The notes under the pieces: generated by a model
What the model saw: the letters and a program-made list of their open reading frames with translations, nothing else
What the model was told of the DNA's origin: nothing
Database searches by the model: none
Shown: positions 51,666-64,000 of the stretch, in pieces
Layout of the letters: each line of letters starts with the position of its first letter
Numbering within the stretch: the first letter of the stretch is position 1
DNA from: a virus
Length of the DNA: 64,000 nt
Strand: one strand, 5' to 3'
IMG/VR virus record: IMGVR_UViG_3300050503_000029
Translations under genes and position numbers: made by a program

Positions 51666-51694
51666 TTGACACATCGGCCGAGAGGAGCTAATGT
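51666..51694 (+). promoter_or_regulatory. promoter TTGACA-N17-TAATGT
   Basis: -35 at 51666..51671, -10 at 51689..51694. The downstream TGTCTCCATCGCAGCAACACG resembles the cassette leaders. Confidence 0.6.
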
Positions 51695-53798: not shown

Positions 53799-53872
53799 GC
53801 CCTCATGGTCTAGAGGCTTAGGACGCTGCCCTCTCAAGGCAGAGGCCGCCGGTTCGAATCCGGCTGGGGGTA
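53799..53872 (+). tRNA. tRNA-Glu (anticodon CTC)
   Basis: Manual fold: acceptor GCCCTCA/TGGGGGT. D arm GTCTAGAGGCTTAGGAC. Anticodon stem CTGCC/GGCAG with loop CTCTCAA. T arm GCCGG-TTCGAAT-CCGGC. Discriminator A, no encoded CCA. Confidence 0.8.
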
Positions 53873-53993
53873 CGGTAGCCCGCTCCTCGGACGGGTGAAG
53901 GGAAGCACGGTCAGAAGGTTATGGGTGGCCGTGCACGGAGTCGGGGTTGAGAAGGGTTTCCCGGATCCACTAATTGCATAGTGTGAGAGTGAG

Positions 53994-54066
53994 GGCGGCA
54001 TACCTCAGTTGGTAGAGGAGTTCCCTTATAAGGTTCCAGTCGCGGGTTCGAGCCCCGCTGCCGCTA
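53994..54066 (+). tRNA. tRNA-like gene, anticodon TAT (Ile2-type), aberrant anticodon stem
   Basis: Acceptor GGCGGCA/TGCCGCT. D arm CCTC-AGTTGGTA-GAGG. T arm GCGGG-TTCGAGC-CCCGC. Loop CTTATAA. The anticodon stem GTTCC/GGTTC has two T:T mismatches. Confidence 0.55.
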
Positions 54067-54440
54067 CTCAGGAGTAGGCACCGATGCCATGAATCAATCC
54101 CCCTGGAAGTGGGGAGCGAATGAGCTAAGGATACTCCGAGAAGACCCTCCGCGGGGTTGCGTCCCTGTTGAGTGGCCATGGTCTGTGAGTCCCGAGTAAC
54201 GCCCTGGGCGAGAGTCCAGCCAGTCTCTGGCATGACGCGATGGCCAACCCCCTAGCTGGTGAGATTTGGTTCCCGCCGCTAGTCGACCGTCCGTGGGTCG
54301 TTGCCTCTTGGGGGAGGTCATGCGATCCACGGGCGGTTTTCGATAGACTCTCGTGGGGCTGGGGGTTGCGTCAACCGACGTGTCCACGGGCCCGGCCCCA
54401 CGAGAATGATTCACCCCCTCCCGAGACGAGTGAGGACTAG

Positions 54441-54572
54441 ATGAGGGCACGTGTACGCGGCGCCATCGTGTCGATGGGCGACCACGACAAGAACGACGAC
54501 GGCGACTCGGACGGCGGCAGCGGGACGACCAACCCGCAGGACGGCGACCACTGGGAAGACGAGGACGACTGA
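54441..54572 (+). CDS. 43-aa acidic mini-protein
   Basis: ATG after GAGTGAGGAC. Very high GC3. MRARVRGAIVSMGDHDKNDDGDSDGGSGTTNPQDGDHWEDEDD. Its stop overlaps the next ATG (ATGA type). Below the track size cut-off. Confidence 0.45.
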   Translation: MRARVRGAIVSMGDHDKNDDGDSDGGSGTTNPQDGDHWEDEDD

Positions 54573-54736
54573 TGTCCACTGACGTCCCCCGCCAGCACGA
54601 CGGCCACGAGGCGGCAACGCCTCCCGAGGCTGACCCGGTGATCCAGCAGGAGACCCGGGAGCACAACCCGGCGGAGCAGGTGCAGCCGCCGGACGCCGAC
54701 GCCGAGGACCTGTACGGACCTCCGCCCGGCATGTAG
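54572..54736 (+). CDS. 54-aa acidic Pro-rich mini-protein
   Basis: MSTDVPRQHDGHEAATPPEADPVIQQETREHNPAEQVQPPDADAEDLYGPPPGM. High GC3. Translationally coupled to the preceding mini-ORF. Confidence 0.45.
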   Translation: MSTDVPRQHDGHEAATPPEADPVIQQETREHNPAEQVQPPDADAEDLYGPPPGM

Positions 54737-54811
54737 TACCGCACGAGGGTGGGCCTCAGCCAAGGTGCTGGGGCTGTTATCTCTGGCAGGTCCCTAAAGC
54801 CTGCCCGCAAG

Positions 54812-54884
54812 CGCCCGTAGCTCAGTTGGCAGAGCAGGGGATTCTTAATCCTCGTGTCACTGGTTCAAGTCCAGTCGGGCGTAC
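54812..54884 (+). tRNA. tRNA-Lys (anticodon CTT)
   Basis: Acceptor GCGCCCG/CGGGCGT. D arm GCTC-AGTTGGCA-GAGC. Anticodon stem GGGGA/TCCTC with loop TTCTTAA. T arm ACTGG-TTCAAGT-CCAGT. Discriminator A. Confidence 0.85.
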
Positions 54885-56483: not shown

Positions 56484-57025
56484 TGCACCTTGAGGCAAGA
56501 GCCGGTCTGGACCGGATGATCGACCACGTCGGCATCGACCGACAGTACCCGTACCGCTGCCTGGACCTGGGCGGGCGGGACATCAACGGTGGCATCCGCG
56601 ACCTCATCCCGAACGGGAAGTGGCAGGGAGTGGACATCGAGGCCGGCCCGGGAGTGGACCTCGTCCGCGACTGCACCATGGGTTGGCTGGACACCCTGCC
56701 GCGGTTCGACATCGTGGTGTGCACGGAGGTCCTGGAGCACGTGGAGAAGTGGCGGGACATCCTCCGCACCTGTGCCCAGGCCCTCGACACGATGGGCAGC
56801 CAGCTCCTGTTCGTGACCGCGGCGTCCACGGGACGACGTGCGCACGGAGCGAGTGGGGCAATGGACCCGGCCCCCGGCGAGTGGTACCGCAACGTGCCGG
56901 CAGAGGACGTGGCCGAGGAGCTGGGCCACCTGTTCAACAACTCCGGCGCGGAGTACAACCCGGTGCCTGGGGACGTGTACGCGTGGGCGACGCTGCCGCG
57001 ATGGGGAGTGGTCAACGGTGAGTAA
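56483..57025 (+). CDS. class I SAM-dependent methyltransferase
   Basis: ATG 56483 overlaps the TAA (TAATG). Motif I RCLDLGGRD, motif II-III IVVCTEVLEHVEKW. Confidence 0.75.
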   Translation: MHLEARAGLDRMIDHVGIDRQYPYRCLDLGGRDINGGIRDLIPNGKWQGVDIEAGPGVDLVRDCTMGWLDTLPRFDIVVCTEVLEHVEKWRDILRTCAQALDTMGSQLLFVTAASTGRRAHGASGAMDPAPGEWYRNVPAEDVAEELGHLFNNSGAEYNPVPGDVYAWATLPRWGVVNGE

Positions 57026-57617
57026 GCCGGAGATCACGGTGGTGGTCCCGTTCCACACCCACCGTGAAGTGAACGGCTACCTCCAGCGTGCGGTTGCCTC
57101 GATCCAGCGTCAGACCATGCCTGACGTCCAGGTGATCGCCATCCGCGACGAGGAGCGGCAGGGGGCGCCGGCCACGCGTCATGCCGGGCTCATGCTCGTG
57201 GACACGCCCTGGGTCGCGTTCCTCGACTCCGACGACGAGATGGACCCGTGCCACCTGGAGCGGATCTACGCGTGCGCCCAGGAGACGGGAGCGGACTACG
57301 TCTACCCGTGGTTCCGTGTGCAGGGCGGGAGCGACCCGTTCCCTCAGTTCTTCGGCCAGCCGTGGGACAACGCCCAGCCGCACCAGACCACAGTGGTGAC
57401 GCTCGTCCGTACTGAGCTGGCCCAGGCCGTCGGCTTCCACGACCCCTCGGGCAAGGGCAACTGGCCGGACGGCCAGCAGTACGGGGAGGACTGGCTGTTC
57501 ACCCTGGGGTGCATGGACAAGGGCGCGAAGATCGTCCACCACCCCGAGCGCACCTGGACGTGGCATCACCACGGGGCCAACTCCTCTGGCATGCCGGGTC
57601 GCGGGGACGCTCGCTAG
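57018..57617 (+). CDS. glycosyltransferase family 2
   Basis: GTG 57018. ITVVVPFHTH N-terminus, DxD in VAFLDSDDEMD. 199 aa. Confidence 0.8.
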   Translation: MSKPEITVVVPFHTHREVNGYLQRAVASIQRQTMPDVQVIAIRDEERQGAPATRHAGLMLVDTPWVAFLDSDDEMDPCHLERIYACAQETGADYVYPWFRVQGGSDPFPQFFGQPWDNAQPHQTTVVTLVRTELAQAVGFHDPSGKGNWPDGQQYGEDWLFTLGCMDKGAKIVHHPERTWTWHHHGANSSGMPGRGDAR

Positions 57618-57623
57618 TCCGCC

Positions 57624-57652
57624 TTGACACGGGGGAGCGCGGGGGATACTGT
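57624..57652 (+). promoter_or_regulatory. cassette promoter TTGACA-N17-TACTGT
   Basis: CGCCTTGACA context, -10 followed by TGTCCTTGTCAGCAAGAC. Confidence 0.55.
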
Positions 57653-57692
57653 TGTCCTTGTCAGCAAGACCGACGAGAGAAGGGCACACAGC

Positions 57693-58016
57693 ATGACCCG
57701 CGCGAACCCGAGTAATACGGACATCGCCCAGCAGTGGGCGGATCGCTACGTCGCCCAGCACGACTACCTCACTCGTGTGTACGCGGCACTGACCAACGAG
57801 TCTGGGCACCAGCTCATGACCACGGACAAGTGCACGGAGTGTGACTACGCCGTGACGGCCGACTACTTCGAGAACAGCGCCCACTGGATCATGTGGGACC
57901 CCCAGAGCCAGACCCACATCGTGGTGATCGGCTGTGAAGGGTACTGGCTGATCAACCCCGCGTCAGTGGGTCTCGACCCTCAGATGTGGTCGGGTATCGA
58001 GGGCGTCAACATCTGA
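57693..58016 (+). CDS. cassette 1 protein (107 aa), hypothetical
   Basis: ATG 57693 after GAGAGAAGGG, inside track ORF 57624..58016. Contains CTEC. Confidence 0.6.
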   Translation: MTRANPSNTDIAQQWADRYVAQHDYLTRVYAALTNESGHQLMTTDKCTECDYAVTADYFENSAHWIMWDPQSQTHIVVIGCEGYWLINPASVGLDPQMWSGIEGVNI

Positions 58017-58032
58017 TCAAGCCCTGACAGAG

Positions 58033-58073
58033 AGAGCGGGAGTCGCGCGACATGAGCGCGTGACTCTCGCTCT
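58033..58073 (+). terminator. cassette terminator
   Basis: Preceded by CCTGACAGAGAG. Stem AGAGCGGGAGTC.../...GACTCTCGCTCT. Followed by TTCGCATG. Confidence 0.55.
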
Positions 58074-58195
58074 TTCGCATGTCTGAGACGTCCTGAGAGC
58101 GCGTCTCACGCTCCTAACGCACTAGCGCGAGTCTCTGTGTCGAGTGCAGCGCGAGAGCGCGTCAGACGCGCGCACAGAGACTTCCTCGCTACGTG

Positions 58196-58224
58196 TTGAC
58201 ATGAGAGCCGGGACCGGGTAGTGT
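58196..58224 (+). promoter_or_regulatory. cassette promoter TTGACA-N17-TAGTGT
   Basis: -10 followed by TCTTCTTGTGAGCAAG. Confidence 0.65.
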
Positions 58225-58290
58225 TCTTCTTGTGAGCAAGCGAGACCGGCTCACAGAGCAAGGATTGTTAACTCAACAGGGAGCGTCACG

Positions 58291-58581
58291 ATGGCTGAGA
58301 GCATCAACCGGCTTACGAACGACGAGGCGCGCGAGGCGTTCGAGAACATGATCAACGTTCTCGGCTGCGAGGGTGCGGCGAGCATCGCGGAGAACTTCAT
58401 CGAGCGTGAGGCGGAGAAGGTCGCCGCTGACATCAAGGATCCTCAGAAGAGGAGGGCCGCTGAGCTGGTCGTCTTCCGGATCATCCTTGACAAGCTGGAG
58501 GCAGCGTATGCGGAAGAGCTTCACGTGAACGAGACCGGCGAACAGCCCCGCTACGACGCGGGTCCCGGCAACGTCGGCTGA
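58291..58581 (+). CDS. cassette 2 protein (96 aa), acidic helical
   Basis: ATG after CAGGGAGCGTCACG. Its leader TAACTCAACAGGGAGC is identical to the one before gene 19628. Confidence 0.6.
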   Translation: MAESINRLTNDEAREAFENMINVLGCEGAASIAENFIEREAEKVAADIKDPQKRRAAELVVFRIILDKLEAAYAEELHVNETGEQPRYDAGPGNVG

Positions 58582-58588
58582 CGAACAG

Positions 58589-58625
58589 AGAGGCCCCCTG
58601 TGTGTGACGGCACAGGCGGGCCTCT
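58589..58625 (+). terminator. cassette terminator
   Basis: AGAGGCCCCCTGTG-N8-CACAGGCGGGCCTCT with one bulge. Confidence 0.6.
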
Positions 58626-58645
58626 CGCGCGTTGCTGCGGACAGC

Positions 58646-58661
58646 GGATACCCGGCATACC
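58646..58661 (+). repeat. 16-bp quasi-palindrome GGATACCCGGCATACC (copy 1)
   Basis: Lies between the cassette terminator and the next promoter. Confidence 0.85.
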
Positions 58662-58712
58662 GGTGGTGTGGGTCAGGCTCTGAGACCGGCTCACAACGCC
58701 GGCGCGTCCTCC

Positions 58713-58741
58713 TTGACTCACGAGCCGGGCCCGTGTAGTCT
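58713..58741 (+). promoter_or_regulatory. cassette promoter TTGACT-N17-TAGTCT
   Basis: CTCCTTGACT context. Confidence 0.55.
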
Positions 58742-58782
58742 TTAGATGTGAGCCCGACAAGCGGGCCCCGAAGGGAGCGACA

Positions 58783-59034
58783 GTGGACGCCACTCAGAAG
58801 AAGATCGCCGAGATCATGGGGACGATCAACCTGGAAGAGCTGGCCCAGCAGATGGTCGACAAGATCTCCGCCGAGATCTGCGACCACGCCGACCTCATCG
58901 CGCTTGCGCGCATGGAGGAGAAGAAGATCAAGGACGCTGACAGCCACGACGCGCACAAGATCTACGACGCCGCCGAGGCCATGATCATCGCCGCCGTGCT
59001 CCGCCACATGACCAACATCAACGCCAAGAAGTGA
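58783..59034 (+). CDS. cassette 3 protein (83 aa), helical
   Basis: GTG after GAAGGGAGCGACA. Track ORF. Confidence 0.6.
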   Translation: MDATQKKIAEIMGTINLEELAQQMVDKISAEICDHADLIALARMEEKKIKDADSHDAHKIYDAAEAMIIAAVLRHMTNINAKK

Positions 59035-59047
59035 TCGGCCGCAAGTA

Positions 59048-59083
59048 GAGGGGGCCCCTGCTCACCCGAGGGGGGGCCTCCTC
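59048..59083 (+). terminator. cassette terminator
   Basis: GAGGGGGCCCC-N14-GGGGCCTCCTC followed by GTTTGGGTTT. Confidence 0.6.
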
Positions 59084-59104
59084 GTTTGGGTTTCACGTCC
59101 CGCC

Positions 59105-59134
59105 TTGCGCTGAGCGCGGAGCACGTGGTACGAT
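59105..59134 (+). promoter_or_regulatory. cassette promoter TTGCGC-N18-TACGAT
   Basis: CGCCTTGCGC context, followed by GACTATGTCAGCAAGCG. Confidence 0.5.
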
Positions 59135-59167
59135 GACTATGTCAGCAAGCGAACGAAGGAGCCCGAA

Positions 59168-59500
59168 GTGTACGAGATCGAGAACCCGAAGCGCGTGGAG
59201 ATCATCATCGCCACCGCGAAGATCGTGGGATTCCCCGTCACTGAACTGTCCGCCCTCGTGCTCGATGCCCTCGACGCCGACCACGACACCACGCTGTTCC
59301 CGATCTACAACGTCCTCCCCGACGCCGAGAACGCCGACCCGCGCGCGTTCATGATCTTCTTCCTCCACAACATGATCGGATCCGACGACGACCACGACTA
59401 CATCAGCCACGACCTCGACCACGCCACTCAGTCTCTCGACCCGTGCCCCGCTCACGCGACCGAGTGCGCCACGTGCTGTGAGCCCTGCCTGAACGACTGA
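59168..59500 (+). CDS. cassette 4 protein (110 aa), acidic, C-terminal Cys cluster
   Basis: GTG after GAAGGAGCCCGAA. Ends ...CPAHATECATCCEPCLND. Confidence 0.6.
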   Translation: MYEIENPKRVEIIIATAKIVGFPVTELSALVLDALDADHDTTLFPIYNVLPDAENADPRAFMIFFLHNMIGSDDDHDYISHDLDHATQSLDPCPAHATECATCCEPCLND

Positions 59501-59515
59501 CGCACCACACCAGCC

Positions 59516-59552
59516 GAGAGCGCGTCTCCTCACCCGAGGGGGCGCGCCCTCT
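59516..59552 (+). terminator. cassette terminator
   Basis: AGAGCGCGTCTCC-N8-GGGGGCGCGCCCTCT with a 2-nt bulge. Confidence 0.55.
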
Positions 59553-59599
59553 GGTGAGCGAAGGCCTGAGAGCGGCTGTGACAGCCGGCGACGGTCAGC

Positions 59600-59615
59600 G
59601 GATACCCGGGTATCG
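59600..59615 (+). repeat. 16-bp quasi-palindrome GGATACCCGGGTATCG (copy 2)
   Basis: 15 of 16 positions palindromic. Confidence 0.85.
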
Positions 59616-59667
59616 AGCGGGCAGCTAGCGCGGCTCAGATCGCCGTAGGATTCATCGGCGTGCCGCC

Positions 59668-59696
59668 TTGCATAGCGAGGGGAGAGCGGATAGACT
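59668..59696 (+). promoter_or_regulatory. cassette promoter TTGCAT-N17-TAGACT (class B leader CTTAC-TAC-GTAAG)
   Basis: CGCCTTGCAT context. The inverted repeat CTTAC/GTAAG at 59695..59707 overlaps the start region. Confidence 0.55.
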
Positions 59697-59737
59697 TACT
59701 ACGTAAGCAAGACAAGCCCGAGCGAGAGGCAAGATCC

Positions 59738-60031
59738 ATGACTGACCGCGCACCCCTCGACCACGCGAAGATCGCCGTCCGCGCCGCTGACATCGCCGCG
59801 CACCACCTGACCGCGTTCAACCCCGGCGACTTCCTCGACGCCCTTGAGATGTTCGGCAACAGCCTGACCCGCTTCGTCTGGGCGGCGATCGATGACAGCC
59901 GCGACGACGAGAAGCTGGACGACTACTTCACCGAGCTGTCCAGTGAAGAGTTCGCCGAGCGTTACGACGCCGTCGCCGAGATCCTGCTCACGATCTTCAC
60001 CGCGTTCCTCGCGCGACTGCCCCGCCGCTGA
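59738..60031 (+). CDS. cassette 5 protein (97 aa), acidic helical
   Basis: ATG 59738 after GAGAGGCAAG, inside track ORF 59660..60031. Confidence 0.6.
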   Translation: MTDRAPLDHAKIAVRAADIAAHHLTAFNPGDFLDALEMFGNSLTRFVWAAIDDSRDDEKLDDYFTELSSEEFAERYDAVAEILLTIFTAFLARLPRR

Positions 60032-60041
60032 CACCCTGACA

Positions 60042-60075
60042 GAGAGCGCCTCCTCTTCCGAGAGGGGGCGCCCTC
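60042..60075 (+). terminator. cassette terminator
   Basis: Preceded by CCTGACAGAGAG. Stem GAGAGCGCCTCCTCT-TCCG-AGAGGGGGCGCCCTC. Followed by GCATGG. Confidence 0.6.
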
Positions 60076-60102
60076 GCATGGGGAGCGCGGGGAATTTTGG
60101 AT

Positions 60103-60114
60103 GGCAACGTTGTC
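60103..60114. repeat. GGCAACGTTGTC palindromic motif abutting the -35
   Basis: Part of the conserved block TTTTGGATGGCAACGTTGTCAGGCCTTGC (compare 63036..63066). Confidence 0.75.
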
Positions 60115-60119
60115 AGGCC

Positions 60120-60148
60120 TTGCGCGGCACGACGCGGGGTGGTAAGCT
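60120..60148 (+). promoter_or_regulatory. cassette promoter TTGCGC-N17-TAAGCT (class B)
   Basis: The -10 is embedded in GGTAAGCTTACCTTGTAAGC. Confidence 0.55.
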
Positions 60149-60183
60149 TACCTTGTAAGCGAGAGAGCAGAGAGAGGGAGATC

Positions 60184-60405
60184 ATGGAGAAGCCCAGCCA
60201 CTTCGAGCGCAAGAACCCCGACGTGATCGGCAAGTTCATCAGCCTGACCGCCGAGCTCCTGTCCGCCGACATGACCCAGGCTGACTACGACAAGCTCCGC
60301 GAGATCGCCGGCATCCTGAACCCGGGCGGGGGAGCGTTCGGCTTCGTCGCTCGCCTGAACGGCGACGTGGAGCGTCTGCACCCCCACATCCAGCGCCGCG
60401 ACTGA
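60184..60405 (+). CDS. cassette 6 protein (73 aa)
   Basis: ATG 60184 after AGAGGGAGATC, inside track ORF 60097..60405. Confidence 0.6.
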   Translation: MEKPSHFERKNPDVIGKFISLTAELLSADMTQADYDKLREIAGILNPGGGAFGFVARLNGDVERLHPHIQRRD

Positions 60406-60417
60406 CCGCCCCTGACA

Positions 60418-60451
60418 GAGAGCCCGTCCTCACCTGAGAGGGCGGGTTCTC
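60418..60451 (+). terminator. cassette terminator
   Basis: Preceded by CCTGACA. 14-bp stem GAGAGCCCGTCCTC/GAGAGGGCGGGTTCTC. Followed by GCATGG. Confidence 0.65.
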
Positions 60452-60499
60452 GCATGGGCGCGGCCCTGAGAGCGCGCGAGACGAGGTGTGTGGGGCACA

Positions 60500-60515
60500 G
60501 GATACCCGGCATACC
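60500..60515 (+). repeat. 16-bp quasi-palindrome GGATACCCGGCATACC (copy 3)
   Basis: Identical to copy 1. Confidence 0.85.
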
Positions 60516-60587
60516 AGGCTCCGTCGCCGGCTCGCACGCGGCCGCTGAGAGCCTCCTAAGTTACTTGTCGGTAAGGCCCGTCTCGCC

Positions 60588-60616
60588 TTGACGCGGCTCC
60601 GCGTGGTTGGTAAGCT
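60588..60616 (+). promoter_or_regulatory. cassette promoter TTGACG-N17-TAAGCT (class B)
   Basis: CGCCTTGACG context. The -10 is embedded in GGTAAGCTTACTCCGTAAGC. The upstream block CTAAGTTACTTGTCGGTAAGG is shared with 61972..61990. Confidence 0.6.
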
Positions 60617-60655
60617 TACTCCGTAAGCACGAAACGCCGAGCAAGGAGAGATCAC

Positions 60656-60865
60656 GTGGGTATCCTCGACCGCTTCCGCCGCACTGCCGACTCGGGCGAC
60701 GGGCCGGGCGTTCCCGAGCCCGACCTGGGCCGCCCCTACGCGACCGTCCGTTACAAGAACGAGACGGGTGGGTACACCGAGGTTCAGGCGTACAGCGCCG
60801 TCCAGGCTGACGAGATCAAGGCCGATCACCCCGACGCGAAGATCACGCCGAAGCGCGGGCGCTGA
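60656..60865 (+). CDS. cassette 7 protein (69 aa)
   Basis: GTG after CAAGGAGAGATCAC. Track ORF. Confidence 0.55.
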   Translation: MGILDRFRRTADSGDGPGVPEPDLGRPYATVRYKNETGGYTEVQAYSAVQADEIKADHPDAKITPKRGR

Positions 60866-60874
60866 TCGGGTAGC

Positions 60875-60908
60875 AGGGGGCGAGTCGAGAAGTCATCGGC
60901 TCGCCCCT
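60875..60908 (+). terminator. cassette terminator overlapping the next -35
   Basis: AGGGGGCGAG-N15-CTCGCCCCT. The last stem base is the first T of TTGCGC. Confidence 0.55.
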
Positions 60909-60937
60909 TGCGCATGACGTCAGGCCCGTGGTAAGCT
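60908..60937 (+). promoter_or_regulatory. cassette promoter TTGCGC-N18-TAAGCT (class B)
   Basis: The -10 is embedded in GGTAAGCTTACTCCGTAAGC. Confidence 0.55.
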
Positions 60938-60975
60938 TACTCCGTAAGCAAGAACGACGACGAGAGGAACCGACC

Positions 60976-61110
60976 ATGATGAACCACCGCCAGCGCGACC
61001 CCGAGGGTCTGTGGGTGTTGCTCGCCGGCATGACCTTCATCGTGTTCCTGACCACCGGCGTGATCCTCGGCCCCGACGGGATCGCCGCCCTGTGGAACAT
61101 GATCTTCTGA
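60976..61110 (+). CDS. cassette 8 protein (44 aa), single-TM mini-protein
   Basis: ATG 60976 after GAGAGGAACCGACC. MMNHRQRDPEGLWVLLAGMTFIVFLTTGVILGPDGIAALWNMIF. Confidence 0.45.
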   Translation: MMNHRQRDPEGLWVLLAGMTFIVFLTTGVILGPDGIAALWNMIF

Positions 61111-61123
61111 TCCGCCGCTGACA

Positions 61124-61159
61124 GAGTGCCCCTGCCCTCGAAAGAGGGTGGGGGCGCTC
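61124..61159 (+). terminator. cassette terminator
   Basis: Preceded by GCTGACA. 16-bp stem GAGTGCCCCTGCCCTC-GAAA-GAGGGTGGGGGCGCTC. Confidence 0.6.
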
Positions 61160-61209
61160 GTATGGAGCGAGGCCCTGAGTCGTCCTGTGAGCCGGCGACG
61201 AGCCGCAGA

Positions 61210-61225
61210 GGATACCCGGGTATCC
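61210..61225 (+). repeat. 16-bp perfect palindrome GGATACCCGGGTATCC (copy 4)
   Basis: Fully self-complementary. Confidence 0.9.
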
Positions 61226-61299
61226 ACCGGCGGGGCTGACGGGCGCAGAGAGCCGCACAGGACTTTCTAAAGAATCTTGGAAGTCCCCCTCGTTTCGCC

Positions 61300-61328
61300 T
61301 TGACGGAGCGAGCGCGGTGCCGTAGTGT
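61300..61328 (+). promoter_or_regulatory. cassette promoter TTGACG-N17-TAGTGT
   Basis: CGCCTTGACGG context, followed by TATCCATGTCAGCACGACA. Confidence 0.65.
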
Positions 61329-61380
61329 TATCCATGTCAGCACGACAGAGCAACACAAACCCTGAGAGCGAGTGATTCAA

Positions 61381-61755
61381 ATGTCCGCCAAGAACTTCTC
61401 CCACGCCGCTTGCGACCACGCCTCCACCAAGGTCGCTCGTGCGAAGTGCCGCCGTGAGATGGCCCGCTCCATCGCCGCCCTCGTGAGCGTCGCCACCGTC
61501 GTCACCGAGTCCCCGATCATCACCGCGTGGAACTCGATGAAGACCGGCCCGCTGGAGCTGCTCCCCGCCCCCGTTCGCACCGACGTGACCGCCGAGAACT
61601 GGAGGGAGTTCAAGGGTCAGACCGTCTCCGTCGACCTGATCGGCGAGACCATCGAGGGTGAGATCACCGGGTGGAGCGCGAAGAACGTGCAGATCAAGAC
61701 CGACGGCAAGACCGTCCGCCACCCCGTCAGCATCGTGATCCGCGCGACCGTCTGA
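61381..61755 (+). CDS. cassette 9 protein (124 aa) with N-terminal H-x2-C-x-H-x9-C module
   Basis: ATG 61381 after GAGAGCGAGTGATTCAA. MSAKNFSHAACDHASTKVARAKCRRE... Confidence 0.6.
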   Translation: MSAKNFSHAACDHASTKVARAKCRREMARSIAALVSVATVVTESPIITAWNSMKTGPLELLPAPVRTDVTAENWREFKGQTVSVDLIGETIEGEITGWSAKNVQIKTDGKTVRHPVSIVIRATV

Positions 61756-61768
61756 TCCGACGCTGATA

Positions 61769-61809
61769 GAGAGCCCCTGAGAGACGCTGAGAGCGTCCCA
61801 GGGGCTCTC
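61769..61809 (+). terminator. cassette terminator
   Basis: Preceded by GCTGATA. 11-bp perfect outer stem GAGAGCCCCTG/CAGGGGCTCTC plus an inner GACGC/GCGTC stem. Followed by GCATGG. Confidence 0.65.
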
Positions 61810-61915
61810 GCATGGACGCGCCGGCACTCTCGTACACGCGAGACGTGCGAGGCGCTTAGAGGCGCGCACAGGGCCTCGGCTCTGTACGGCGCTCAGACGG
61901 AGGGTGTGGGACGCC

Positions 61916-61931
61916 GGATACCCGGCATACC
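61916..61931 (+). repeat. 16-bp quasi-palindrome GGATACCCGGCATACC (copy 5)
   Basis: Identical to copies 1 and 3. Confidence 0.85.
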
Positions 61932-62004
61932 TCCCCGCCTCACGCCGGCTCAGATCGCCGCCTGTGGCTTTCTAAGTTACTCGTGGGTAACCCCTCGATC
62001 TGCC

Positions 62005-62033
62005 TTGACGGCCCCGGGCTGGGCGCGTAGTGT
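62005..62033 (+). promoter_or_regulatory. cassette promoter TTGACG-N17-TAGTGT
   Basis: TGCCTTGACGG context, followed by TATCCATGTCAGCACGACA. Confidence 0.65.
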
Positions 62034-62073
62034 TATCCATGTCAGCACGACAACGACGACGAGGGAGCAAGCC

Positions 62074-62340
62074 ATGACGAAGACCACGACCTACACCGTC
62101 CGGATGATCATGGGGAACGACAAGTGCACCACTCAGACCACCGTCGAGAGCGACACCACCGAGAACGCGGCGCGTGAGGCGGAGATGAAGTGGACGGGGA
62201 TCACGGTTCGGATCGTCACCGTCGAGGGGCCCGACGGGTGTGACGTTGAGCTGTGCGAGGACGACGACCACTGGTGCACGACGGACGAGCGCCACGGGCA
62301 CCTGGAGAGCGACGGGACGTGCATGAACTGCCACTACTGA
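62074..62340 (+). CDS. cassette 10 protein (88 aa), Cys/His-rich
   Basis: ATG 62074 after GAGGGAGCAAGCC, inside track ORF 61906..62340. Ends ...HWCTTDERHGHLESDGTCMNCHY. Confidence 0.6.
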   Translation: MTKTTTYTVRMIMGNDKCTTQTTVESDTTENAAREAEMKWTGITVRIVTVEGPDGCDVELCEDDDHWCTTDERHGHLESDGTCMNCHY

Positions 62341-62361
62341 GAGAGGGAGAGAGACGCCGTT

Positions 62362-62392
62362 AGAGGGCCCTGAGCGTAGCTCAGGGCCTCTC
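62362..62392 (+). terminator. cassette terminator
   Basis: GAGGGCCCTGAGC-GTA-GCTCAGGGCCTC followed by TCGCATGG. Confidence 0.6.
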
Positions 62393-62471
62393 GCATGGAC
62401 GACCGGGCACTGAGAGACGCGCGCCGGCTGAGAGGCGCTTAGACGGGCGCACAGGAAGTTTCGGTCTCGCC

Positions 62472-62500
62472 TTGACGGAGCCGGCGGGACCGTGTAGTGT
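62472..62500 (+). promoter_or_regulatory. cassette promoter TTGACG-N17-TAGTGT
   Basis: CGCCTTGACGG context, followed by TCTTCTTGTCAGAACG. Confidence 0.65.
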
Positions 62501-62540
62501 TCTTCTTGTCAGAACGAAACGCCGAGCAAGGAGCCCGACC

Positions 62541-62882
62541 ATGAGCGAGATCATCGTCCGCGAGATGACCGACGTGACCCCCACTTGCGCCCTCTGCGGG
62601 TTCGTCATCGAGGACATCGACCTCTCCGAGGAGACTGCCCGAGGCCTGATCCACTTCGACCGCCAGTGCCCGAAGGGCGCCGAGAAGAAGGCCAAGCCGG
62701 CTCGCAAGATCGCCGCCGCGCCGAAGAAGTCCCCGGAGCGCGTCCTCGCCGAGGGTGCGGGAATCGTCGTCAAGGAGATGAAGATCGTGGGTGTCCGTGG
62801 CGCTCACGCCGAGTGCGACCACGCCGCGACCAAGAGCGCGCGTGCCGCGTGCCGCAAGGCGAAGGCTGCCGCCGCGAAGTGA
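62541..62882 (+). CDS. cassette 11 protein (113 aa) with C-terminal H-x2-C-x-H-x9-C module
   Basis: ATG 62541 after CAAGGAGCCCGACC. N-terminal CALC...CPKG, a lysine-rich linker, then C-terminal GAHAECDHAATKSARAACRKAKAAAAK. Confidence 0.6.
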   Translation: MSEIIVREMTDVTPTCALCGFVIEDIDLSEETARGLIHFDRQCPKGAEKKAKPARKIAAAPKKSPERVLAEGAGIVVKEMKIVGVRGAHAECDHAATKSARAACRKAKAAAAK

Positions 62883-62890
62883 CCAAGATC

Positions 62891-62926
62891 GAGAGCCCCT
62901 GCTCCCAGACGGGAGTGGGGGCCCTC
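62891..62926 (+). terminator. cassette terminator
   Basis: GAGAGCCCCTGCTCCC-AGAC-GGGAGTGGGGGCCCTC. Confidence 0.6.
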
Positions 62927-62974
62927 AGGTGGGCGAGGCTCTGAGAGCCCGCCTAAGAGCCTGTCGTGGGCCCA

Positions 62975-62990
62975 GGATACCCGGCATTCC
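62975..62990 (+). repeat. 16-bp quasi-palindrome GGATACCCGGCATTCC (copy 6)
   Basis: One substitution relative to copy 1. Confidence 0.8.
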
Positions 62991-63046
62991 ACCGAGGCGC
63001 TGCCGGCGTCAGAACGCCGTACAGGCCTCCCCAAGATTTTTTGGAT

Positions 63047-63058
63047 GACAACGTTGCC
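63047..63058. repeat. GACAACGTTGCC palindromic motif abutting the -35
   Basis: Part of TTTTGGATGACAACGTTGCCAGGCCTTGC. Confidence 0.75.
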
Positions 63059-63063
63059 AGGCC

Positions 63064-63092
63064 TTGCATCTGCCGTGGCACCCGTGTAATGT
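63064..63092 (+). promoter_or_regulatory. cassette promoter TTGCAT-N17-TAATGT
   Basis: Followed by TCTTCTTGTCAGCAAGACAACG. Confidence 0.6.
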
Positions 63093-63136
63093 TCTTCTTG
63101 TCAGCAAGACAACGACCCAGAGAGCGAGTGATCCAA

Positions 63137-63445
63137 ATGGCCGCCAAGAAGTGCAACTCTTGCAAGACCCGCCGCGCCTCCTCCGAGAACATGGCCGACC
63201 TTTGCAACCTGTGCTACGAATACGGCGCCTGGGAGAACCAGCACGAGGACGACAACCACGAGGGCGGCGAGAACCTGACCCCTGACTGCCTCGTCTGCCA
63301 CGGCACCGACCCCGCCACCGTCGAGCCGAAGGGTCACTCCAACGGGATCGCCAAGACCCACACCAGCCACGCTGAGTGCAGCCACCCGCGCACGAAGGCC
63401 GCGCGTGCGAAGTGCCGCAAGGAGCGCGCCCAGTCGGGCGAGTGA
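63137..63445 (+). CDS. cassette 12 protein (102 aa) with C-terminal H-x2-C-x-H-x9-C module
   Basis: ATG 63137 after GAGAGCGAGTGATCCAA, the same leader as cassette 9. CNSC...CNLC...CLVC, then SHAECSHPRTKAARAKCRKERAQSGE. Confidence 0.6.
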   Translation: MAAKKCNSCKTRRASSENMADLCNLCYEYGAWENQHEDDNHEGGENLTPDCLVCHGTDPATVEPKGHSNGIAKTHTSHAECSHPRTKAARAKCRKERAQSGE

Positions 63446-63455
63446 ATCCCCAGTA

Positions 63456-63486
63456 GAGGAGCCCCCGCGTGAGCGGGGGTTTCCTC
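63456..63486 (+). terminator. cassette terminator
   Basis: GAGGAGCCCCCGC-GTGA-GCGGGGGTTTCCTC followed by GTTTGGG. Confidence 0.6.
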
Positions 63487-63497
63487 GTTTGGGACGT

Positions 63498-63509
63498 GGC
63501 AACGTTGCC
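63498..63509. repeat. GGCAACGTTGCC perfect 12-bp palindrome
   Basis: Directly after the terminator. Fully self-complementary. Confidence 0.75.
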
Positions 63510-63556
63510 ATTCCGCGAGGCTCTGAGCGGCCGTCTAAGCGCCTCTGTGGGACCTT

Positions 63557-63572
63557 GGTATGCCGGGTATCC
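63557..63572 (-). repeat. 16-bp quasi-palindrome, inverted orientation (GGTATGCCGGGTATCC; copy 7)
   Basis: Exact reverse complement of GGATACCCGGCATACC. Confidence 0.85.
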
Positions 63573-63731
63573 ACCCCGGACACTGAGGCCGTCAGAGAGC
63601 CGCGCCGGCTAGAGCGTGTCAAGTGCGCGCGACGAGAGAGACGAGGAACGCCCCAGACGGCGCTCAGGCGTGTCTCTGACGTCCTGTGACGTGTCGCCGG
63701 CACGAGAGACTAGAGGCGCGTGTCGAGGCGC

Positions 63732-63753
63732 CCTAGCGAGCGCACAGAGCTTC
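63732..63753 (-). repeat. copy 3 (reverse strand) of the GAAGCTCTGTGCGCTCG element
   Basis: The reverse strand reads GAAGCTCTGTGCGCTCGCTAGG. The first 17 nt are identical to 689..705. Confidence 0.75.
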
Positions 63754-63809
63754 TTTGTACCGCGGATTGTACTGACCTAAAAAATCTTGGTCGTGACGGC
63801 TATCTCGCC

Positions 63810-63838
63810 TTGACGGCCGACGACGACCCGGGTAATGT
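63810..63838 (+). promoter_or_regulatory. cassette promoter TTGACG-N17-TAATGT
   Basis: CGCCTTGACGG context, followed by TCTTCCTGTCAGCACAACG. Confidence 0.65.
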
Positions 63839-63880
63839 TCTTCCTGTCAGCACAACGCAGCAACCGAGGGAGACACCGAG

Positions 63881-64000
63881 ATGAGCAAGATCCAGAGCCA
63901 CGAGAACTGCACCCACGAGTCCTCGAAGGCCGCCCGCGCCAAGTGCCGCCGCTCCCGCGCCAAGTTCGCCGACGCGTTCGCCAGCGCCCTGACCGACGGC
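63881..64000 (+). CDS. cassette 13 protein, N-terminal part (runs off the window), with N-terminal H-x2-C-x-H-x9-C module
   Basis: ATG 63881 after GAGGGAGACACCGAG. MSKIQSHENCTHESSKAARAKCRRSRAKFADAFASALTDG... Confidence 0.55.
   Translation, partial: MSKIQSHENCTHESSKAARAKCRRSRAKFADAFASALTDG

Follow-up and report, generated by a model that had tools for sequence, protein, structure and literature searches.

Host-takeover early regions have been described in other phages, among them SPO1's module for host takeover (PMC6873191). In Streptomyces, promoters display a TANNNT -10 element, an NTGACC/TGAC -35 element and A/T enrichment at +1/+2 (PMC4895711, PMC6742748). At transcript 3' ends without a U-tract in Streptomyces lividans, read density falls less, which the authors interpret as read-through (PMC6742748). 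We analyzed 64,000 nt of viral DNA (IMG/VR record IMGVR_UViG_3300050503_000029), hereafter the window, which corresponds to a cluster BR Streptomyces phage with 96.7% identity to KimJongPhill and 100% to the metagenome contig L019.

A row of one-gene units at the right genome end

Our analysis confirms that the right end of this genome is a row of ~20 one-gene units, each with a host-type promoter and a hairpin (Table 1). Between 57624 and 64000, 13 promoters and 12 strong post-stop hairpins border 12 complete small ORFs plus one that the window edge cuts, all co-oriented, in agreement with the element counts (for 6.4 kb) and the ORF sizes (44-124 aa) of the initial annotation. The array starts at 57.6 kb as proposed but extends past the window edge: in L019, the contig of identical sequence, it runs on for ~4.8 kb, for a total of 19 promoters matching our regular expression and ~21 genes. 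The portion in the window (57.6-64 kb) represents the first 60% of a block 11-12 kb long. Coding density falls from 92% in the remaining genome to 54-62% in the array, about half of which is non-coding.

Table 1. Features of the array in the window. Promoter rows list the -35 hexamer, spacer length and -10 hexamer, then the sequence that follows where given.
Feature	Coordinates	Strand	Description	Comparison
P1	57624..57652	+	TTGACA, 17 nt, TACTGT; TGTCCTT/GTCAGCAAGA	regular expression; Zuko keeps hexamers, spacer differs
g1	57693..58016	+	107 aa, acidic (pI 4.4); GC3 0.86	KimJongPhill gp106; dN/dS 0.35 vs. Zuko
T1 hairpin	58026..58083	+	20-bp GC stem	Zuko stem sequence differs, still paired
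P2	58196..58224	+	TTGACA, 17 nt, TAGTGT; TCTTCTT/GTGAGCAAG	
g2	58291..58581	+	96 aa, acidic	KimJongPhill gp105; dN/dS 0.16
T2 hairpin	58582..58631	+		
Dyad core	58646..58661	+	GGATACCCGGCATACC, asymmetric form; 66 bp upstream of P3 -35	
P3	58713..58741	+	TTGACT, 17 nt, TAGTCT	
g3	58783..59034	+	83 aa, GTG start	KimJongPhill gp104, aa identity only 75% (allele swap)
T3 hairpin	59038..59091	+	CGTTTGGG tail	
P4	59105..59134	+	TTGCGC, 18 nt, TACGAT	
g4	59168..59500	+	110 aa, GTG start, very acidic (pI 4.2), 5 Cys	KimJongPhill gp103; dN/dS 0.23
T4 hairpin	59501..59560	+		
Dyad core	59600..59615	+	GGATACCCGGGTATCG, palindromic form; 67 bp upstream of P5 -35	
P5	59668..59696	+	TTGCAT, 17 nt, TAGACT; TACTAC/GTAAGCAAGA	
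g5	59738..60031	+	97 aa, acidic	KimJongPhill gp102; dN/dS 0.27
T5 hairpin	60034..60083	+		lacks the 370-bp Endonuclease VII gene insertion of KimJongPhill's loop
P6	60120..60148	+	TTGCGC, 17 nt, TAAGCT; TACCTT/GTAAGCGAGA	
g6	60184..60405	+	73 aa	KimJongPhill gp101 residues 61-133; dN/dS 0.91
T6 hairpin	60406..60463	+		compensatory stem changes in Zuko
Dyad core	60500..60515	+	GGATACCCGGCATACC; 87 bp upstream of P7 -35	
P7	60588..60616	+	TTGACG, 17 nt, TAAGCT; TACTCC/GTAAGCACGA	
g7	60656..60865	+	69 aa, GTG start	KimJongPhill gp100; dN/dS 0.68
T7 hairpin	60866..60917	+	3' arm adjoins/overlaps P8 -35	
P8	60908..60937	+	TTGCGC, 18 nt, TAAGCT; TACTCC/GTAAGCAAGA	
g8	60976..61110	+	44 aa, one hydrophobic segment	KimJongPhill gp99 'membrane protein'; dN/dS 0.73
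T8 hairpin	61113..61169	+		
Dyad core	61210..61225	+	GGATACCCGGGTATCC, perfect palindrome; 89 bp upstream of P9 -35	
P9	61300..61328	+	TTGACG, 17 nt, TAGTGT; TATCCAT/GTCAGCACGA	
g9	61381..61755	+	124 aa, basic; N-terminal H-C-H-C motif, long helix, C-terminal small Sm/SH3-like beta-barrel	
T9 hairpin	61756..61816	+		
D13 module, copy 1	61787..61872	+	direct repeat flanking g10 unit	
Dyad core	61916..61931	+	GGATACCCGGCATACC; 88 bp upstream of P10 -35	
P10	62005..62033	+	TTGACG, 17 nt, TAGTGT; TATCCAT/GTCAGCACGA	
g10	62074..62340	+	88 aa, acidic, 6 Cys	mobile unit
T10 hairpin	62355..62401	+		
D13 module, copy 2	62370..62455	+	73% identity with copy 1	
P11	62472..62500	+	TTGACG, 17 nt, TAGTGT; TCTTCTT/GTCAGAACGA	
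g11	62541..62882	+	113 aa, basic; N-terminal Cys pair, basic linker, C-terminal H-C-H-C motif	
T11 hairpin	62891..62926	+		
Dyad core	62975..62990	+	GGATACCCGGCATTCC; 88 bp upstream of P12 -35	
P12	63064..63092	+	TTGCAT, 17 nt, TAATGT; TCTTCTT/GTCAGCAAGA; AT-rich block AAGATTTTTTGGA upstream	
g12	63137..63445	+	102 aa, 8 Cys, C-terminal H-C-H-C motif	allele 74% identical to KimJongPhill gp95
T12 hairpin	63449..63493	+	CGTTTGGG tail	
Dyad core	63557..63572	+	GGTATGCCGGGTATCC, inverted form, flanks in usual orientation	repeat family D5
P13	63810..63838	+	TTGACG, 17 nt, TAATGT; TCTTCCT/GTCAGCACAA	
g13	63881..64000	+	cut at window edge; N-terminal H-C-H-C motif	full length (122 aa) in L019 and KimJongPhill gp94

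Host-type promoters and nearly U-free leaders

Scanning both strands of 57624-64000 for TTG(AC/CG/CA)N-N17/18-TANNNT identified the 13 promoters, of sigma-70/HrdB type, on the + strand and no sites on the - strand, with a chance expectation of 0.06 sites on average and two at most (500 dinucleotide shuffles). A generic TTGACA/TATAAT scan missed them because their -10 boxes (TAGTGT, TAAGCT) score poorly against TATAAT. The bare -35/-10 pattern recurs at 10 further + strand positions of the window, three of them at 51666, 52611 and 53690 and the other seven from 7.4 to 22.3 kb, and it is therefore only the extended template that is array specific. As defined by pooling 88 array promoters from six phages, this template combines the Streptomyces housekeeping consensus with CC before the -35 (86-92%), a 17-nt spacer (77%), G at -13 (92%) and a T-rich discriminator of 6-7 nt, and it agrees with the -10, -35 and +1/+2 A/T enrichment in Streptomyces (PMC4895711, PMC6742748).

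Array transcripts would share a conserved start, GT(C/A)AGCA, followed by a short, nearly U-free leader (0-2% T across about 15 positions in the 88 promoters) with a GGAG Shine-Dalgarno (SD). The SD previously assigned to every unit is present in 11 of 13, but g9 and g12 have a different leader in common, GAGAGCGAGTGATYCAA-ATG; in distal units past the window edge, the leader is absent altogether. The conserved promoter-proximal blocks were recovered as direct-repeat families D1, D7, D8 and D18. However, the first 6-7 nt of what had been described as an initial transcribed block most likely lie upstream of +1, since in leaderless sister units of KimJongPhill, Zuko and L016 the ATG is 6 nt past the -10, so that +1 falls on the conserved G/A. 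Throughout, we infer promoter use, start sites, timing and termination from the DNA sequence.

Stable hairpins and signatures of selection

In 12/12 complete ORFs, a GC hairpin with a GAGAG...CTCTC stem base is found ≤15 nt past the stop codon, and its conserved flanks, as initially noted, are recovered as families D4 and D19. The 60 nt following these stops have minimum free energies of -29.8 to -42.1 kcal/mol, vs. a mean of -18.5 kcal/mol for random 60-nt windows of the same genome, 3% of which reach -28 kcal/mol. All 12 hairpins are retained in Zuko, an 81% identical phage used as reference for selection, with stem pairing preserved via compensatory changes. In the same comparison, identity is 0.88 for the -35, 0.82 for the -10, 0.88 for the discriminator, 0.88 for the first 10 transcribed nucleotides and 0.90 for the dyad core (see below), vs. 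0.62 for the -35/-10 spacer, 0.73 for codon position 3 and 0.73 for other intergenic DNA. These values support purifying selection on the promoter elements, and the compensatory changes structural selection on the hairpins. The view that every gene is its own transcription unit thus holds for the promoter-like and hairpin elements present at each gene, but a T-rich tail follows T3 and T12 only; the 10 others lack a U-tract and end G/C-rich, so some read-through is likely and the units may be uninsulated.

A His/Cys motif shared by array proteins

The ORFs evolve as coding sequence, with GC3 of 0.82-0.96 and dN/dS vs. Zuko of 0.16-0.91 (0.43 pooled). For none of them did Pfam or PHROGs yield a match to a functionally known family, in line with the initial impression that they were unrecognizable, and a host-directed role is therefore proposed by analogy. 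They are not all unrelated as had been thought, since g9, g11, g12 and g13 have a common ~22-aa His/Cys motif. This H-x2-C-x-H-x6-R-x2-C-R motif (uncurated), or H-C-H-C, occurs in about half of the array proteins, and its family comprises 522 representative clusters, with fusions to HNH_3, Endonuclease_7, SprT-like and Phage_zn_bind_8 domains. Its presence in several copies on HNH and Endonuclease VII nucleases, together with a model whose confidence over the motif is moderate (pLDDT 65-80), suggests that it is probably a small nucleic-acid-binding module. The annotated start of KimJongPhill gp101 is too far upstream.

Mosaic spacers and reshuffling among relatives

The spacers are mosaics of common modules (direct-repeat families D1-D19). 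They also hold conserved modules absent from the initial annotation. A 16-bp dyad core, GGATACCCGG(S)WWWCC, is confined to array spacers, about half of which contain it: there are seven copies in the window (0.03 expected for the five fitting the searched pattern), 10/10 copies in the whole KimJongPhill genome fall within the array, and the same is true of every copy in seven loci examined. It precedes the next -35 by 66/67, 76-80 or 87-89 bp, in spacers that are largely paralogous or orthologous rather than independent.

Unit content and order vary among five arrays. Zuko gp105, at the array head, is an inverted g10 unit complete with a promoter and hairpin of its own, which would make no sense unless a unit can be expressed alone. 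In L016, the g10 unit is placed ahead of the g9 homolog. D13 flanks this unit in the window, whereas Zuko has one D13 copy and no g10 unit at this place. The Zuko gene 92 unit, flanked there by repeated spacer modules, is missing from the window. The window and KimJongPhill diverge in the g3 and g12 ORFs alone, each bounded by an identical promoter and by repeated modules downstream, and in g12 the divergence stops at the motif-coding repeat. The ORF replacement originally suggested holds in altered form: as these genome comparisons show, relatives differ by the gain, loss, movement or inversion of whole units and by allele swaps, with breakpoints in repeated modules.

Discussion

We favor, with a probability of about 0.75 for the explanation as a whole, an array of tandem one-gene units in which host-sigma promoters drive early host-directed proteins, the dyad core coordinates them and repeated modules anchor recombination. 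Upon entry of phage DNA, host RNA polymerase with its principal sigma factor would fire all array promoters at once, yielding many small proteins at high level and largely independently of one another, which may act on the host or on DNA. The hairpins, probably leaky, would end or stabilize each transcript. The dyad core is most simply a candidate binding site for a regulator coordinating the promoters, and the regulatory modules could double as recombination anchors, a mechanism we infer from the comparative pattern.

Expression could instead be mainly polycistronic, with real promoters but inefficient terminators, transcripts crossing several units, hairpins acting chiefly as 3' stabilizers or processing boundaries, and output cumulative along the array. 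This would fit the co-orientation of the window units, the near absence of T-rich tails and the read-through reported in S. lividans (PMC6742748). Yet each unit keeps its own selected promoter, largely redundant if read-through sufficed, a complete unit is inverted in Zuko, and compensatory changes maintain hairpins that are highly stable (-30 to -42 kcal/mol), all of which makes this scenario possible but rather unlikely.

A structured RNA around the GGATACC core (a small RNA, or a processing site of the RNase III type found between T7 early genes), rather than a DNA site, is improbable. The core is intergenic, where read-through transcripts would pass, it is palindromic in 20/55 copies, and it has CTGAG and CTCAG placed symmetrically around it, at about -28 and +27. 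However, two asymmetric forms (35/55 copies) cannot make the core hairpin, ±50-nt folds differ between copies and are not unusually stable (z-scores mostly -1.8 to +1.2), the sequence between core and outer motifs is neither complementary nor conserved, the core can flip while its flanks stay, and an Rfam search gave no match. It is harder still to believe that the spacers are selfish or neutral repeats (segmental duplication leftovers or MITE-like) without regulatory role, the promoter boxes being copies that were inherited, not 13 signals maintained independently of one another, even though the spacers are mosaic, their repeats bound unit indels and homing endonuclease genes lie within spacers of KimJongPhill and L020. 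Conservation is focal (0.82-0.90 for hexamers and core vs. 0.62 for the 17-nt spacer), stems change in compensatory fashion, repeat orientation strictly matches the genes, and transposon-type terminal inverted repeats and target-site duplications are absent. Moreover, the distant relative L018 has the same architecture with different sequences (17 promoters, many leaderless units).

Our preferred reading is early host-directed expression from one-gene units. The likeness to host-takeover early regions drawn in the initial annotation is an apt one, the array resembling the SPO1 module (PMC6873191). Compared with such regions in other phages, the array stands out for its unusual regularity, its non-coding half and a reshuffling that is visible between relatives.

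The array occupies one end of a cluster BR Streptomyces phage genome

The window comes from a Streptomyces phage of cluster BR (genus Zukovirus), whose genome it shows in reverse complement. Over positions 57000-64000, identity is 96.7% with KimJongPhill (MW822144) and 81% with Zuko (MN204493), two isolated phages that are both assigned to cluster BR (PMC10690885), and a metagenomic contig of 82,094 bp (L019, Logan SRR5584097) is 100% identical to the window across 12.6 kb. The array, in which ORFs g1 to g13 are accompanied by promoters P1-P13 and post-stop hairpins T1-T12, corresponds to a reverse-strand gene block at the right genome end (genes 106 to 94 of KimJongPhill, in descending order) and lies about 6.5 kb from that end. 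The window is continuous across the position to which the ends of the KimJongPhill record map (see table), so the source assembly is circularly permuted, or joined, relative to the defined ends of the isolate. Upstream of the array and on the same strand lie three further consensus promoters, three tRNA genes, an SprT-like protease, a MerR-like protein and a glycosyl/methyl-transferase operon; the last of these promoters, directly 5' of the tRNA cluster, has the TAGTGT-TCTTCTCGTCAG block seen in the array. Beyond the window edge, the array runs to a gene encoding a 466-aa protein, which is followed by convergent recombination and replication genes. The KimJongPhill annotation lists neither an integrase nor a repressor. 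The GC content of the array is 64.5%, compared with 64.1% for the window and genome. Coding sequence fills 54% of the array in the window and 62% of it in KimJongPhill, whereas the figure elsewhere in the genome is 92%. That some 40-45% of an 11-12 kb block is non-coding in a size-limited genome argues that the regulatory scaffold is valuable to the phage.

Coordinates of features in and around the array (window positions unless another genome or contig is named; rc, reverse complement)
Feature	Genome or contig	Position	Strand
Ends of KimJongPhill record	window	51140/51141	
Consensus promoter upstream of array	window	51666	+
Consensus promoter upstream of array	window	52611	+
Consensus promoter upstream of array	window	53690	+
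Three tRNA genes	window	53799-54883	+
U-free leader	window	57660-57692	+
ORF reading through a dyad core	window	58604-58738	+
Dyad cores (seven)	window	58646-63572	
T3 hairpin (span found by the consensus scan)	window	59067-59084	+
U-free leader	window	59140-59167	+
T5 loop	window	~60058-60064	
AT-rich island or inverted repeat	window	60555-60580	
U-free leader	window	60625-60655	+
AT-rich island or inverted repeat	window	61267-61290	
g10 unit	window	~61875-62371	+
AT-rich island or inverted repeat	window	61972-61996	
AT-rich island or inverted repeat	window	63030-63060	
AT-rich island or inverted repeat	window	63777-63800	
Core with switched half-site (example)	KimJongPhill	rc 14043	
Core at orthologous position	Zuko	rc 13856	
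Insertion in T5 loop	KimJongPhill	73246-73618	
Inverted unit inside array	L021	5937-6191	-
Endonuclease_7 gene in spacer	L020	13397-13732	-

Promoters, hairpins and ORFs are built to a common template

The initial annotation had described a tandem series of promoter/small-ORF/hairpin units, and its counts and coordinates proved correct by regex, folding, repeat and ORF checks. A loose -35/-10 regex finds 13 promoters on the + strand of 57624-64000 and none on the - strand, compared with 0.06 expected from dinucleotide shuffles. All 13 display HrdB/sigma-70 hexamers (TTGAC-like -35 and TANNNT -10, 17 +/- 1 nt apart), in agreement with the published Streptomyces consensus (PMC4895711, PMC6742748). 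A generic promoter/terminator scan recovered none of the array promoters and few hairpins, its consensus being of the E. coli type and hence limited here. Pooling 88 promoters yields the template CC-TTGAC-N17-G-TANNNT, followed by 6-7 T-rich nt, G/A-T, and a leader with only 0-2% T over ~15 positions, far below the genome-wide T content; a repeat finder recovered this template as direct-repeat families D1, D7, D8 and D18. When the window is compared with Zuko, identity is 0.88 in the -35 hexamer, 0.82 in the -10 hexamer, 0.88 in the 7 nt that follow and 0.88 in the next 10 nt, against a background of 0.62 in the 17-nt inter-hexamer spacer and 0.73 in both third codon positions and other intergenic DNA.

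Distal units of KimJongPhill, Zuko and the metagenomic locus L016 are leaderless, with an ATG 6 nt past the -10 (TACAGT-CATCAC-ATGACGACGAAC). Leaderless mRNAs account for ~21% in S. coelicolor, and in S. lividans A at +1 and T at +2 are over-represented among start sites (PMC4895711, PMC6742748). By analogy with the leaderless units, the +1 of the window units is probably the G of a conserved GT(C/A)AGCA. The "initial transcribed block" proposed at the outset thus keeps its conserved GT(C/A)AGCA start, and loses the preceding TCTTCTT or TACTCC, which by the same analogy would be discriminator. In promoters of the TAAGCT-TAC...GTAAGC type, the -10 and the likely +1 both fall inside a palindrome, only half of which would therefore be transcribed. 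The 5' leaders are essentially U-free from about +3 to the SD, being composed almost entirely of A, C and G, and a GGAG-type SD is present in 11 of the 13 units, as had been claimed. A 5' RNA hairpin after the -10 was rejected as a general feature, the predicted folds differing between promoter sub-families. Several -35 boxes of this 64% GC genome are preceded, at a distance of 20-35 bp, by an AT-rich island (AAGATTTTTTGGA, CTAAAGAATCTTGG) or by the inverted repeat GTTAC-N6-GTAAC, sequences that might serve as UP-like elements or as a second operator.

A GC hairpin begins within 15 nt of the stop codon in all 12 complete ORFs, as the initial annotation had reported. The minimum free energy of the 60 nt after the stop ranges from -29.8 to -42.1 kcal/mol, whereas random windows of the same genome average -18.5 and 3% of them reach -28. 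These stem-loops, stable, GC-rich and directly 3' of the stop, follow a template with a GAGAG...CTCTC base and CTGACAGAG / CGCATGG flanks (families D4 and D19). All are kept in Zuko, where the stems of T1, T6, T7 and T12 differ in sequence yet still pair (compensatory changes). A U-tract (CGTTTGGG) follows T3 and T12 only, and a consensus terminator scan found T3 alone among the 12, together with two nested sub-stems; with the U-tract mostly missing, we name these elements hairpins and not terminators. Since 10 of the 12 lack a U-tract and such 3' ends leak in Streptomyces (S. lividans, PMC6742748), partial read-through between units is likely, and insulation between units is the main uncertainty in reading each gene as a transcription unit of its own.

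The ORFs have the sizes and the acidic, Cys-rich or single-TM character originally attributed to them. Their GC3 is 0.82-0.96 and their dN/dS relative to Zuko 0.16-0.91 (pooled 0.43), values by which they are real, fast-evolving genes, with g6-g8 weakly constrained. Taken together, the focal conservation relative to Zuko, the retention of hairpins with compensatory stems and the coding signal argue that promoters, hairpins and ORFs are functional. Pfam and PHROGs assigned no function to 20 array proteins, none of which belongs to a characterised protein family.

Further arrays were located via the H-C-H-C motif described below and g9 proteins. At least 10 contigs of ~82 kb are cluster BR-like. 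A like architecture, with promoter sub-families in common with the window, occurs in other ~82-kb metagenomic relatives (L016, L021 and L022) and in a partial locus on a 61-kb contig (L017). A more distant contig (L018) has a matching architecture with other sequences, including 17 consensus promoters, many of them leaderless. With the upstream glycosyltransferase as anchor, no array was found downstream in 11 IMG/VR relatives.

Many array proteins have a His/Cys motif in common

The ORFs had been considered unrelated to each other, which does not hold: g9, g11, g12 and g13 have in common a ~22-aa motif, H-x2-C-x-H-x6-R-x2-C-R (typically SHAxCxHxxTKxARAxCRR), located N-terminally in g9 and g13 and C-terminally in g11 and g12. 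This H-C-H-C motif is found in 11/21 array proteins of KimJongPhill, 11/22 of Zuko, 6/16 of L016, 8/10 of L017 and 8/23 of L018. No Pfam model covers the motif region and PHROGs returned only matches of unknown function (18656, 1342); PF24623 (Phage_zn_bind_8) matches a separate N-terminal domain in two proteins (P0045, P0064), not the motif. An exhaustive profile search recovered the motif in 522 representative clusters, mostly of proteins <150 aa. Larger proteins have two to four copies adjoining HNH_3 or Endonuclease_7, or have the motif with SprT-like, DUF6011 or Phage_zn_bind_8 domains; fusions to Endonuclease_7-type nucleases are seen in P0206 and P0157. Because this domain pattern is that of small nuclease-associated DNA-binding modules, the motif is probably a nucleic-acid-binding module. 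In the AlphaFold model of g9 (pLDDT 81.8), the motif starts a long basic helix that is followed by a confidently predicted small beta-barrel, for which a fold search returned generic Sm/Hfq/SH3-like small barrels (E ~5e-3), a likeness that we treat as a lead and not as an assignment.

A dyad-symmetric site is confined to the array spacers

The DNA between units contains a 16-bp dyad core, GGATACCCGG(C/G)(A/T)(T/A)(A/T)CC, of which the window has seven copies, five of them fitting the pattern used in the search, for which 0.03 would be expected. Across the whole KimJongPhill genome the core occurs 10 times, each time in an array spacer, and every copy in seven loci is likewise found in array spacers. 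Scanning IMG/VR for the palindromic core yielded three isolated matches, probably due to chance. Core identity between the window and Zuko is 0.90, whereas the flanks diverge. There are three forms of the core: one asymmetric, one its reverse complement and one perfectly palindromic. The alternative palindrome, GGTATGCCGGCATACC, accounts for 0 of 55 copies. Core orientation flips without a change in the orientation of the flanks. Half-sites read either GGATACC or GGTATGC, which differ by complementing four bases, and copies at orthologous positions switch from one to the other irrespective of the flanks (an example is listed in the table). With CTGAG near -28 and CTCAG near +27, the core forms a ~60-bp dyad. 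Between the core and the -35 that follows it, spacings group at 66-67, 76-80 and 87-89 bp, roughly a helical turn from one group to the next, a phasing that is at most suggestive because many core copies are related by descent.

The simplest reading of the core is a predicted protein-binding DNA site. A structured RNA around it was rejected (no consistent fold, z ~0), as was a known RNA family, Rfam giving no spacer match but only the three tRNAs upstream of the array and two chance-level matches. A conserved peptide was also rejected, spacer ORFs reading the core in different frames. One such ORF, Zuko gp102 (39 aa), present in the window as well, reads through the core (…SGYPAY…) and is probably a false gene call, given that the reading frame across the core differs in other spacers.

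Units are exchanged at repeated modules

The initial annotation had proposed ORF replacement within duplicated cassettes, an idea that stands in modified form: whole units or alleles are exchanged, with breakpoints in repeated modules. The g10 unit, bracketed in the window by an 86-nt direct repeat (D13), is missing at the syntenic site of Zuko, which has one D13 copy. The Zuko homolog of g10, gene 105, is a complete unit with -35/-10, GTAAGCAAGA start, SD and GAGAGC hairpin, inverted and back-to-back with P1, and in L016 the g10 homolog is placed before that of g9. The unit of Zuko gene 92, with repeated spacer modules on its flanks, is absent from the window, and L016 has six units without a KimJongPhill homolog and misses homologs of seven KimJongPhill units among gp88-gp106. 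The window and KimJongPhill are 98-100% identical except in the g3 and g12 ORFs, where divergence begins just past identical promoters and leaders and ends at the terminator (g3) or at the motif-coding repeat (g12). These breakpoint positions suggest that the repeats are recombination substrates. L021 contains another inverted unit, which encodes an H-C-H-C protein unlike g10 and carries a GAGAGC-type hairpin of its own.

KimJongPhill has a 370-bp insertion of 54% GC exactly in the T5 loop, where the window phage has an empty site. The opposite strand of the insertion encodes an unannotated ~110-aa Endonuclease VII-type homing endonuclease (PF02945, E 6.7e-11), and as a consequence of the insertion KimJongPhill gp101 is annotated 60 aa too long (g6 equals residues 61-133). 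In L020, which belongs to the lineage of the window phage, an Endonuclease_7 gene lies in another array spacer, at a site equivalent to ~4.8 kb beyond the window edge. With such genes in two different spacers, homing endonucleases seem to land repeatedly in array spacers.

Discussion

The best-supported reading is that the array would be an early block of autonomous one-gene units driven by host RNA polymerase, analogous to SPO1's host-takeover module, each unit fitting the structural definition of a moron. We infer its timing, start sites, termination efficiency and protein functions. A more ambitious reading, which we consider unlikely, would make the array a self-regulating, recombination-driven diversification platform, something of an "expression-ready" counterpart of integrons in a lytic phage, with the dyad core as operator for the array's own H-C-H-C proteins. 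Templated modules would then be there partly so that units can be swapped in and out, inverted and exchanged without losing expression, the swapping would be done by the phage's own recombination genes, and pairing of core and H-C-H-C proteins would link the units into one timed circuit. Each genome has 10 dyad cores and ~11 H-C-H-C proteins.

If the units are autonomous early genes, as the best-supported reading has it, the array would be a compact library of ~20 small, rapidly evolving and strongly expressed proteins directed at Streptomyces, and a place to look for inhibitors of host transcription, nucleoid, cell division and defence systems in an industrially important genus. For synthetic biology in Streptomyces, it supplies ready-made promoters, U-free leaders and hairpins that resemble one another without being identical. 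An uncurated, probably nucleic-acid-binding family is marked by the H-C-H-C motif, and the repeat-bounded turnover of units offers a concrete, testable picture of how a lytic phage might renew its accessory genes.

In phage SPO1, the host-takeover module (work cited in PMC6873191) is a ~12-kb near-end block of small, mostly unknown genes with many strong host-RNA-polymerase promoters and strong ribosome-binding sites, presumed to be expressed early and at a high level. The array likewise places a cluster of small genes, equipped with strong promoters of host type and with ribosome-binding sites, close to a genome end. The 26 SPO1 genes are in operons, whereas the array has essentially one gene per promoter; the SPO1 module lies inside the terminal redundancy, while templated spacers, dyad core and common H-C-H-C motif have no counterpart described for SPO1; and early timing and toxicity, demonstrated for SPO1, are putative for the array. 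A Pfam/PHROGs comparison showed no sequence homology between the two, and we found no usable literature data on transcription or function in cluster BR phages.

Morons are units of independent promoter, gene and terminator, present in some relatives and absent in others (HK97/HK022), and are typically single insertions of deviant GC in temperate phages, expressed from the prophage (PMC3594210). At the sequence level, the array has 12 complete units with promoter and terminator-like hairpin around the gene, and the g10 and Zuko gene 92 units are present or absent at one position. It differs from morons in having ~20 tandem units on one regulatory template, with the GC of the genome, in a phage without annotated integrase or repressor.

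Repeated similar promoters and terminators also subdivide the early region of the Streptomyces phage phiC31, and there too an inverted repeat recurs intergenically. The early promoters of this temperate phage are reportedly near-identical, not sigma-70-like, and accompanied by conserved inverted repeats (CIRs) bound by the repressor; those of the array are near the HrdB-type consensus, and its core lies 66-89 bp upstream of the -35, not at the promoter. The stoperators of cluster A mycobacteriophages are, like the dyad core, short conserved actinobacteriophage sites with many intergenic copies. They are asymmetric, oriented with transcription, found genome-wide and bound by the immunity repressor, whereas the core is dyad-symmetric and flips orientation, and its copies all lie in a single 12-kb block. 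Integron cassette arrays resemble the array as tandem small single-gene cassettes with fast turnover and repeated boundary elements, but integron cassettes are promoterless and moved by an integrase at attC. We rejected the array as an integron, with no annotated integrase and a promoter in every unit, and its breakpoints look like ordinary homologous exchange between repeats. As a feature, the array is genuine, conserved and of unusual regularity. It does not amount to a new kind of system, and is distinctive within known phage early regions for its templated scaffold, array-specific dyad site, common motif family and repeat-bounded unit shuffling.
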